29,446 bases of DNA, taken from positions 1 through 29,446 of the forward strand of contig JBBCJC010000009.1 of assembly GCA_037189525.1 (NCBI GenBank). The letters run 5' to 3'. Within the stretch, counting starts at the first letter, position 1. Each line of letters opens with the position of its first letter. Source of the stretch: Gemmatimonadales bacterium (lineage in GTDB: Bacteria > Gemmatimonadota > Gemmatimonadetes > Gemmatimonadales > GWC2-71-9). The notes under the pieces were generated by a model that saw only the letters and a program-made list of their open reading frames with translations, searched no databases and had not been told where the DNA came from. The position numbers were made by a program, and so were the translations under genes. This document shows positions 7,987 through 10,900 of this stretch, in pieces.

Positions 7987-10900
7987 ATGATCGATTTCCG
8001 CAGCGGGCGCGAGCCCAAGAGCTCGAGCTTCGACTACTTCGCGATCCGGATCGCCTCTCCCGAGGAGATCCGCGGTCCGCGTGACCCCAAGGAACGGGAG
8101 CGTCTCGAACTCCAGGGTCTGCGCACCTGGTGGTCGTGGGGCGAGGTCACCAAGCCCGAGACGATCAACTACCGTTCCTTCAAGCCGGAACGGGACGGCC
8201 TCTTCTGCGAGCGGATCTTCGGTCCGGTCAAAGACTGGGAATGCCATTGCGGTAAGTACAAGCGGATTCGCTATCGCGGCGTGATCTGCGACCGCTGCGG
8301 CGTCGAGGTGACGCTGTCGAAGGTGCGGCGCGAGCGGATGGGCCACATCGAGCTCGCCGTGCCGGTGGCGCACATCTGGTTCTTCAAGACGCTGCCGTCG
8401 CCGATGGGTAACCTGCTCAACATCACCCTGCGTGATCTCGAGCGGGTCATCTACTACTCGGCCTACGTCATCATCGAGCCCGGCAAGCAGGAGGTCGACG
8501 TCGGTCAGCTGATCGACGAAGACGAATACCTGAATCTGCGGATGCAGGCGCGGGAGCAGAACGATACGGCCTTCCGGGCCGAGATCGGCGCGCCGGCCGT
8601 GCGGGCCATGCTCGAGAAGATCGACATCAAGAAGCTGGCGGAGGAACTGCGCGCCGGTGTGGCGAGCGAAACCAGCCAGCACCGCAAGAAGCAGATGCTC
8701 AAGCGGCTCAAGATCGTCGATGCGTTCCTCTATTCGGGTGAGCACCAGGATCAGGGCGGCAACAATCCCGCCTGGATGATCATGGACGTGGTACCGGTGC
8801 TGCCGCCGGACCTCCGTCCGCTGGTACCGCTCGACGGTGGCCGTTTTGCGACCTCCGACCTGAACGATCTGTATCGCCGGGTCATCAACCGGAACAACCG
8901 GTTGCAGAAGCTGATCCAGCACCGCGCGCCGGAAGTCATCCTCCGGAACGAAAAGCGGATGCTACAGGAGGCGGTCGACGCGCTGTTCGACAACGGCCGT
9001 CGCTCGAAGGCGATTCGCGGCCGCGGCAAGCGCCCGCTCAAGTCGCTCTCCGACATGCTGAAGGGCAAGCAGGGCCGCTTCCGTCAGAACCTGCTCGGTA
9101 AGCGGGTCGACTACTCGGGCCGTTCGGTCATCGTGGTCGGTCCGGAGCTCCGGCTCCACCAGTGCGGTCTGCCCAAGGCCATGGCCGTCGAACTCTTCAA
9201 GCCGTTCATCATCAACAAGCTGGTGGACAAGGGCATTGCGGAGACGGTCAAGCGCGCCAAGAAGATCGTGGAGCGCGAAGGGCCGGAGGTCTACGAGATC
9301 CTGGAAGAGATCATTCAGGATCATCCGGTGCTCTTGAACCGCGCGCCGACGCTGCACCGTCTGGGTATCCAGGCGTTCGAGCCCAAGCTGGTCGAGGGCA
9401 AGGCCATCCGGATCCATCCGCTGGTCTGCGCGGCGTTCAACGCCGACTTCGACGGCGACCAGATGGCCGTACACGTTCCGTTGTCACTGGAGGCACAATT
9501 GGAAGCCCGCACGTTGATGCTGGCTTCGAACAACGTGCTTTTCCCGGCCAACGGCGAACCGTCCATCGTGCCTTCGCAGGACATCGTGCTGGGCCTGTAT
9601 TACGCCACGCGCGAGCGCATCAATGGCAAGGGCGAGGGCATGTTCCTGGCCGATCTGTCGGAAGTGCAACGCGCCTACGACAACAAGGAAGTCGAGCTGC
9701 AGACTCGCATTACTGTTCGTTTGAACGAGTACGAGAAAGACGAGCAAGGCCAATGGCAGCCGGTGACCAAGCGTTTCGAAACCACGGTCGGCCGCGCGCT
9801 GCTTTCCGAGATCCTGCCCAAGGGCTTGCCCTTCTCGGTGCTGAACCGTCCTTTGAAGAAAAAAGAGATCTCGCGTCTGATCAACCAGGCGTTTCGCCGT
9901 TGCGGCCTGCGCGCCACGGTGATCTTCGCCGACAAGCTGATGCAGTCTGGATTCCGCTTGGCGACGCGCGGCGGTATTTCGATCGCGATGAGCGACATGC
10001 TCGTGCCTTCGGTCAAGGAAGACATCCTGGCGCAGGCCAGTAAAGAGGTCAAGGAAATCGACAAGCAGTACTCGTCGGGTCTGGTGACCGCTCAGGAACG
10101 CTACAACAACGTGGTCGACATCTGGGGCAAGGCCGGCGATAAAGTCGGCAAGGCCATGATGGAGCAGTTGGCAACCGAACCCGTCGTGACTCGCCAGGGG
10201 GAGCAGGCGCGGCAGGAGTCGTTCAACTCCATCTACATGATGGCGGACTCCGGCGCCCGGGGCTCGGCGGCGCAGATACGCCAGTTGGCGGGCATGCGCG
10301 GCCTGATGGCCAAGCCGGACGGCTCCATCATCGAAACGCCGATTACCGCGAACTTCCGCGAAGGCCTGAACGTGCTGCAGTACTTCATCTCGACGCACGG
10401 CGCGCGTAAAGGTCTGGCCGATACGGCATTGAAGACCGCGAACTCCGGTTACCTGACGCGTCGTCTGGTCGACGTGACGCAGGATCTGGTCATCACGGAA
10501 GCCGATTGCGGCACCACCCGCGGCTATGCCATGAAGGCCCTGGTCGAAGGCGGTGAAGTCGTCGAGCCCCTGCGCGATCGCATCCTGGGCCGTGTGGCGG
10601 CTGTCGACATCGTCCATCCGGACACCCAAGAGACCGTGATTCCCGCCGGCACGCTGCTGGATGAAGACGCGGTCGAGCAGGTCGACGAAATCGGCGTGGA
10701 CGAAGTGCGCGTTCGCACACCGCTGACGTGCGAAACCCGTCATGGATTGTGCGCGCGCTGCTATGGTCGAGACCTTGGCCGAGGTTCCATGGTCAGCCGA
10801 GGCGAAGCGGTCGGTGTCATTGCCGCGCAATCCATCGGCGAGCCCGGCACGCAGCTGACGATGCGTACCTTCCACATCGGCGGCGCGGCCTCGCGCGCGG

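Follow-up and report, generated by a model that had tools for sequence, protein, structure and literature searches.

A change of phylum inside rpoC of a Gemmatimonadales draft genome, very probably made by an assembler at a 53-nt block shared with an Alcaligenaceae chromosome

Contigs that unite different species are a known product of metagenome assembly: in CAMI data, 444 of 640 near-complete MEGAHIT MAGs each carried one or more interspecies chimeric contigs, and repeats or conserved regions can fuse fragments of different genomes in a way that marker scores miss (10.64898/2026.10.15.759294). The locus described here resembles the cases in the accessible part of that preprint in that a foreign segment is joined within a contig at a conserved region while the marker scores of the bin are good, and differs from them in that the join is cross-phylum, lies inside a marker gene, does not interrupt the reading frame and is located to within 53 nt; in the accessible main text of the preprint there is no mention of rpoC or RNA polymerase. 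It is also related to the chimerism described in the accessible part of the GUNC paper (10.1101/2020.12.16.422776), since foreign lineage content is understated by marker redundancy scores, although GUNC considers lineage homogeneity across contigs, whereas the present case is confined to one contig and one gene and amounts to 0.43% of the genome. A literature search, to which subscription papers were mostly outside, returned no relevant chimera or natural hybrid at the NADFDGD motif or between phyla. Discordant trees for the parts of rpoC would also result when RNA polymerase genes are transferred naturally or recombine internally; to our knowledge, however, real transfers of this kind replace the resident allele, stand at host depth and recur in relatives, and all three of these properties fail for the rpoC studied here.

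The window, that is, the whole stretch of 29,446 nt that was analysed, is contig C9 of a 16-contig, 4.65-Mb Gemmatimonadales genome rated 98.1% complete and 0.78% contaminated. Its gene order runs nusG, rplA, rplJ, rplL, rpoB and rpoC, the last being an open reading frame of 1441 aa (7987-12312). We consider it almost certain that the window is composed of a piece of Gemmatimonadales chromosome (1-9417) and a piece of Alcaligenaceae chromosome (9471-29446), mis-joined by a short-read assembler at a block common to both. The features are as follows.

1..141, plus strand: 3′ end of a tuf-like gene, presumably so from the translated frame; host contig C3 begins with the same 141-mer and continues into ribosomal protein genes.
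598..7980, plus strand: host (Gemmatimonadales) block of nusG, rplA, rplJ, rplL and rpoB, collinear with same-genus genomes at 78-86% DNA identity.
7987..9417, plus strand: host rpoC 5′ part, codons 1-477, nesting among same-genus Gemmatimonadales; exact pieces in sequencing run X1.
9418..9470, plus strand: shared 53-nt block, codons 478-495, found without a difference in the window, at 531-583 of contig C10 from the same bin, and in the Alcaligenaceae genome G053; the join is somewhere inside it.
9439..9459, plus strand: NADFDGD motif, residues 485-491, read from the sequence; in the beta′ subunit it forms the catalytic loop that binds Mg.
9471..12312, plus strand: 3′ part of rpoC, foreign and derived from an Alcaligenaceae bacterium; 2354/2385 nt identical to G053 (9471-11855); exact piece in run X1.
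12313..29446, no single strand: foreign flank from the same Alcaligenaceae organism, 94-98% identical to and collinear with contig C45 of G053; LysR regulator, aldolase, TRAP transporter, ileS, sensor kinase with regulator, AraC regulator and trimeric autotransporter.
17535..20390, minus strand: foreign ileS, additional to the host copy on contig C5, to which it is 28% identical.

The original prediction, made from the sequence, was that RpoC switches phylum at its catalytic motif, and this was borne out by the comparisons of ancestry: residues 1-477 group with Gemmatimonadales and the residues after 495 with Alcaligenaceae. Comparison with the full RpoC references, of which 59 of 59 were recovered, gave the N-terminal part, expected to be Gemmatimonadota-like, identities of 88-96% with 12 same-genus proteins and of 59-61% with 17 from betaproteobacteria; for the C-terminal part, expected to be Burkholderiales-like and now narrowed to Alcaligenaceae, the corresponding figures were 34-46% and 72-90%. 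The eight proteins that reach 85-90% with the C half comprise six from Alcaligenaceae or its genera, one Burkholderiaceae MAG and one uncultured betaproteobacterium. In a sample of genomes the best matches for residues 1-477 were Gemmatimonadales (90%) and Gemmatimonadaceae (87%), the next standing at 73%, and those for the remainder were Alcaligenaceae, at up to 91%; the two scans for related loci took in 1/64 and 2/64 parts of the collection, so that closer matches may exist. With sliding windows of 60 aa, the lineage flips between the window starts at residues 451 and 481. Separate trees, proposed as the check, were built by a quick IQ-TREE run (LG+G4) with 36 of the 59 references, chosen to span the groups: the N half falls inside the clade of its genus (support 98), and the C half is placed among six proteins, five from Alcaligenaceae or its genera and one from an uncultured betaproteobacterium (support 100). 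AU tests reject a betaproteobacterial placement of the N half (p 2e-10) and the placing of the C half with Gemmatimonadota (p 1e-5). At the DNA level each half finds a match of 98-99%, in genomes of different phyla, namely a MAG with the locus L279 for the first and G053 for the second. Compared with bacterial RpoC in general, both halves are ordinary sequence with the catalytic motif intact, and the whole frame scores 1769.3 bits on TIGR02386 against a cut-off of 963.5; it is unlike the RpoC of any lineage in that the 1441-aa composite matches no single one along its length, the same-genus proteins having about 1516-1531 aa.

The switch had been located at 9415-9490, and this holds, with the refinement that the crossover lies in the identical block 9418-9470 and cannot be located more closely. 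The change in composition is equally real. The codons after the motif read as first noted (GTA, CAC, GTT, CCG, TTG, TCA, CTG, GAG, GCA, CAA, TTG), and the five quoted peptide signatures are all present in the 1441-aa frame. CTC, described as frequent upstream, makes up 20/47 Leu codons before the block versus 4/75 after it (Fisher p 7.6e-7), and TTG, described as commoner downstream, passes from 2/47 to 24/75 (Fisher p 1.9e-4), while CGG occurs 21 times in the 477 codons before the block and 5 times in the 947 after. The statement that upstream codons are almost all G/C-ending overstated the contrast, GC3s being 0.867 before and 0.793 after. A CUSUM of Markov log-ratios places the change point at 9422, with an Alcaligenaceae model trained on rpoC-containing loci, which leans that way. 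As a proof on its own this log-ratio was set aside as weak, contigs C4, C6, C8, C12, C14 and C16 scoring near zero too, and bulk GC was discarded as a marker of the switch because it is nearly flat.

The donor side is represented by a free-standing genome. In a comparison of 301 genomes from the family around Allopusillimonas soli, the best match to the C half was G053, at 99%, and the runner-up reached 85%; these genomes are a subset of a larger family, in which closer matches may exist. Its identity with the window is 2354/2385 nt after the block and only 227/299 before it, where G053 has its own rpoC, of betaproteobacterial type. G053 carries window 9418-29446 at 94-99%, contig C45 covering 11801-29446 at 94-98%, and with the collinearity of 12313..29446 the expectation that the genes downstream of rpoC are Burkholderiales-like was also confirmed. 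After the part that matches the window flank, C45 presents rpsL/rpsG/fusA-like genes and continues into genes that match the rpsL-fusA region of C10 at 69-76%. Three named Alcaligenaceae genomes also have the kinase-regulator cluster (window 20.7-24.4 kb) a few kb downstream of rpoC. From this collinearity and these three gene orders it follows that 9471-29446 is one ordinary stretch of Alcaligenaceae chromosome. The contig ends at the breaks of the G053 rpoC overlap by about 55 nt versus 141 nt in the genome of the window, a difference which suggests that G053 comes from a different assembly. As to further donor DNA in the bin, the first 20 of the 36 kb of C6 gave two matches to G053, at 64-71%, and none was found in the whole of C8 or in the first 20 of the 43 kb of C14. 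Some side observations can be added here. The rpoC of G053 is split over its contigs C118, C128 and C45, with a break at the stretch that matches window 9119-9173, adjoining a second conserved block, and rpoC is also broken across contigs or incomplete in the same-genus genomes G001, G005, G009, G010, G015 and G018. The trimeric autotransporter adhesin of the window (25918-29446) is truncated by the contig end, and is the part most divergent from G053 (94%, with an indel near 26356-26443).

The 3′ half that the Gemmatimonadales rpoC lacks in the window is found in the same bin. Contig C10 opens inside a second rpoC, collinear with the window from 8888 onward, and its stretch 584-3650 is host rpoC: it shares 74-94% identity with the 12 same-genus proteins, branches from within their group in the tree, and has a codon use that resembles that of the N part of the window (CTC p 0.86, TTG p 0.71). 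It is because this missing half of the Gemmatimonas gene lies on another contig of the same draft genome that the switch is read as an assembly error. All 12 same-genus loci are window-like upstream of the motif (87-92%) and C10-like downstream (85-92%); further flanking blocks are common to C10 and 11 of them, the twelfth stopping at a contig edge, and the window beyond 12150 is matched by 0/12. The two host parts add up to 1516 aa, and the same-genus frames measure 1516-1531 aa in 11 of 12 and 1475 in the one that is cut by a contig end; thus, the real host RpoC would be about 1516 aa long, as in its genus. A search for the exact host flank plus block returned one other genome, an uncultured Gemmatimonas sp. 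MAG (locus L279), which agrees with the window in 293/300 nt upstream and with C10 in 118/120 nt downstream, and which is therefore the native host join in a separate assembly; the same exact pattern gave 0 matches in metagenomes. Host-type sequence on one side with donor-type sequence on the other was found in 0 of 170 other motif-bearing loci, a sample of loci, so that this means not found rather than absent. C10 ends with rpsL, fusA and the beginning of a tuf-like gene; 141-mers link this end to host contig C11, and the host end of the window to host contig C3, and neither of the two foreign ends, on the window and on C10, has a 141-nt link to any contig in the bin. Right behind rpoC, C10 also bears an 880-aa open reading frame (L001 3881-6523), by eye a Ser/Thr kinase with a helical-repeat tail, which aligns in none of the 12 same-genus loci and may be a recent insertion.

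The beginning of C10 is itself a mosaic. Its first 71 aa are up to 100% identical to Actinomycetota, which make up most of the 80 best matches, and the next 100 aa or so are 88-97% identical to 17 betaproteobacterial proteins and 72-76% to Gemmatimonadota. The change between the two coincides with the second conserved block (window 9061-9134), where 44 and 29 exact nt are common to C10 and the window. C10 1-530 is thus also falsely joined, an actinobacterial piece and then a second betaproteobacterial piece standing ahead of the host sequence. The piece upstream of the 53-nt block agrees with G053 in only 265/299 nt (89%), for which reason it comes from a different organism than the donor of the window, and a clean reciprocal swap between the two contigs is ruled out. 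In other words, this one rpoC region holds three false joins, at least four organisms and two conserved blocks.

The site of the join is what would be expected of a hub. The 53 nt spanning the NADFDGD codons are the same in 53/53 positions in the window, C10 and G053, and are the longest of six exact matches of at least 21 nt between C9 and the other 15 contigs, the 141-nt end link aside; 54 of 186 loci, spread across phyla, share with the window an exact run of 21 nt or more there, and in many of them this run is 35-56 nt long. With k-mers below 53 nt, the rpoC genes of many members of the community would collapse in a de Bruijn graph to a hub at the motif; pruning around it could leave wrong pairs of paths, (i) the incoming path of the host with the outgoing path of the donor, and (ii) the outgoing path of the host, now C10, with the incoming path of another organism; and an iterative-k assembler would carry the mispaired contigs through to its largest k. 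Assemblers that iterate over k can carry wrong pairs forward in this manner, and the contig-end overlaps of 141 nt suggest a MEGAHIT-type run with k=141. The binner took the contig whole, so that the bin received about 20 kb of donor DNA.

The depths of the two sides differ, as had been proposed for a chimera. Of the 24 runs listed, 22 hold part of 8400-10600, all as contigs, and X1, which may be the source sample and would then not be independent, holds 74% of its words. In X1 the left side is present without mismatch in pieces at 8400-9078 (depth 109.8) and 9111-9455 (96.4), the right side at 9441-9944 (5.6), and the host continuation at C10 569-2400 (103.7). The coverage step across the join is thus roughly 17-20-fold, the right side standing at about 1/18 of the host, in contig-level depths from Logan that give one figure per piece, the contigs breaking inside the shared block so that spanning molecules are invisible. 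The summed depth over the motif in X1 is about 2600, because many organisms share it. None of the contigs of the 22 runs bridges the block, in the hybrid or the native arrangement, and among 15 listed joints, with sides of 18-39 nt, none reproduces the junction of the window and none is on C10. Gaps prove nothing alone: X2, X5 and X8 have zero depth over 8400-8769, yet near-exact pieces of the donor side, X1 lacks cover at C10 1-160, C10 321-400 and window 9954-10027, and X18 is without any long piece of C10.

The original prediction preferred to explain the switch as an assembly chimera made at a shared k-mer, and this explanation now has in its favour the 53-nt block, C10, the donor genome, the near-identical native MAG and the step in depth. 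Several points are counted against it: the depth step comes from a run that may be the source sample itself, and from contigs that break inside the block; the exchange with C10 is not cleanly reciprocal; a high-depth path of the host was paired with a low-depth path of the donor; and the assembler and its pruning steps are conjectural. A minor rival is an artefact made at the bench, in which templates switched at the 53-nt identity during PCR or whole-genome amplification. A perfect match of this length can prime such switching, and hybrid reads would help a false join to survive large k; but three false joins and four organisms in one rpoC region suit a graph hub better, and at a host depth of about 100x the true link would far outnumber chimeric library molecules, which makes this origin very unlikely. 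That the window instead belongs to a single lineage with an unusual rpoC, its switch a matter of uneven conservation, would agree with a GC that differs little over the join (about 0.63 versus 0.61), but is already refuted by the two AU tests and by the near-identity of each half to a genome of a different phylum, and its probability is practically nil.

There remains the alternative that had been raised beside the chimera, a real cross-phylum hybrid active site, for which no support was found; the block is identical in both parents, and the motif is therefore not hybrid in sequence in any case. It would suppose a minority Gemmatimonadales lineage with a hybrid rpoC and a working RNA polymerase, in which a crossover within the 53 nt had introduced 20 kb or more from the chromosome of the donor. 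The frame does run uninterrupted through the join, over 1441 codons, with a good score on TIGR02386; the join lies in perfect homology, where a crossover would also be expected; and both organisms are present in run X1. The open frame and the position in homology, however, are equally expected from a mis-join in a graph. The native 3′ half, at host depth in X1, would have to persist beside the hybrid, and the donor half stands at about one eighteenth of that depth. Moreover, the donor side is still 94-99% like the free-standing donor genome, brings a redundant ileS, and continues as donor-type sequence to the contig end at 29446 with no crossover back to the host seen before there; and the hybrid was not met in the sample of other motif-bearing loci, the exact pattern of host flank and block leading to a single genome, with the native continuation, and to no metagenome. 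We regard this alternative as extremely improbable. The hybrid gene, then, most likely never existed, and is no real biological feature; had it been true, the halves of the beta′ subunit would be exchangeable across phyla in nature.

With an assembler mis-join as the explanation, about 20 kb (0.43%) of DNA from another phylum is fused in frame inside rpoC of a bin rated 0.78% contaminated. The gene is widely used as a phylogenetic marker, and two thirds of the full-length RpoC of this bin are foreign; the genes at 12453-29446 would likewise be misread if taken as horizontal transfers into Gemmatimonadota. Window 9471-29446 and C10 1-530 should be dropped from the genome, and window 9470 joined to C10 584. 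The case offers a clean, mapped test example for misassembly detectors, and suggests a simple screen, in which the conserved rpoC blocks are searched for changes of lineage.

Finally, some other features of the bin deserve mention. C15 (1494 nt), without a 141-nt link to other contigs and possibly another stray, consists of a single 498-codon open frame whose repetitive sequence presumably resembles repeats of the filamentous haemagglutinin type. C14 (42830 nt) has its first and last 141 nt identical, and the contig is therefore circular; with a GC of 0.60 and a composition unlike that of the main contigs, it is a candidate phage or plasmid. A repeat of about 140 nt forms a family of 64 members, for the most part in one orientation and 0.6-2 kb apart; it occupies contigs C7, C12, C4 and C16 as a whole and the ends of C1, C2 and C13, and isolated copies lie on C5 (two) and C2 (one). 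Both strands of these repeats fold into a long hairpin, and their ends fit what we take to be the core motifs of integron attC sites, so that, by its sequence, the family looks like a candidate for a large integron cassette array on a Gemmatimonadales chromosome.
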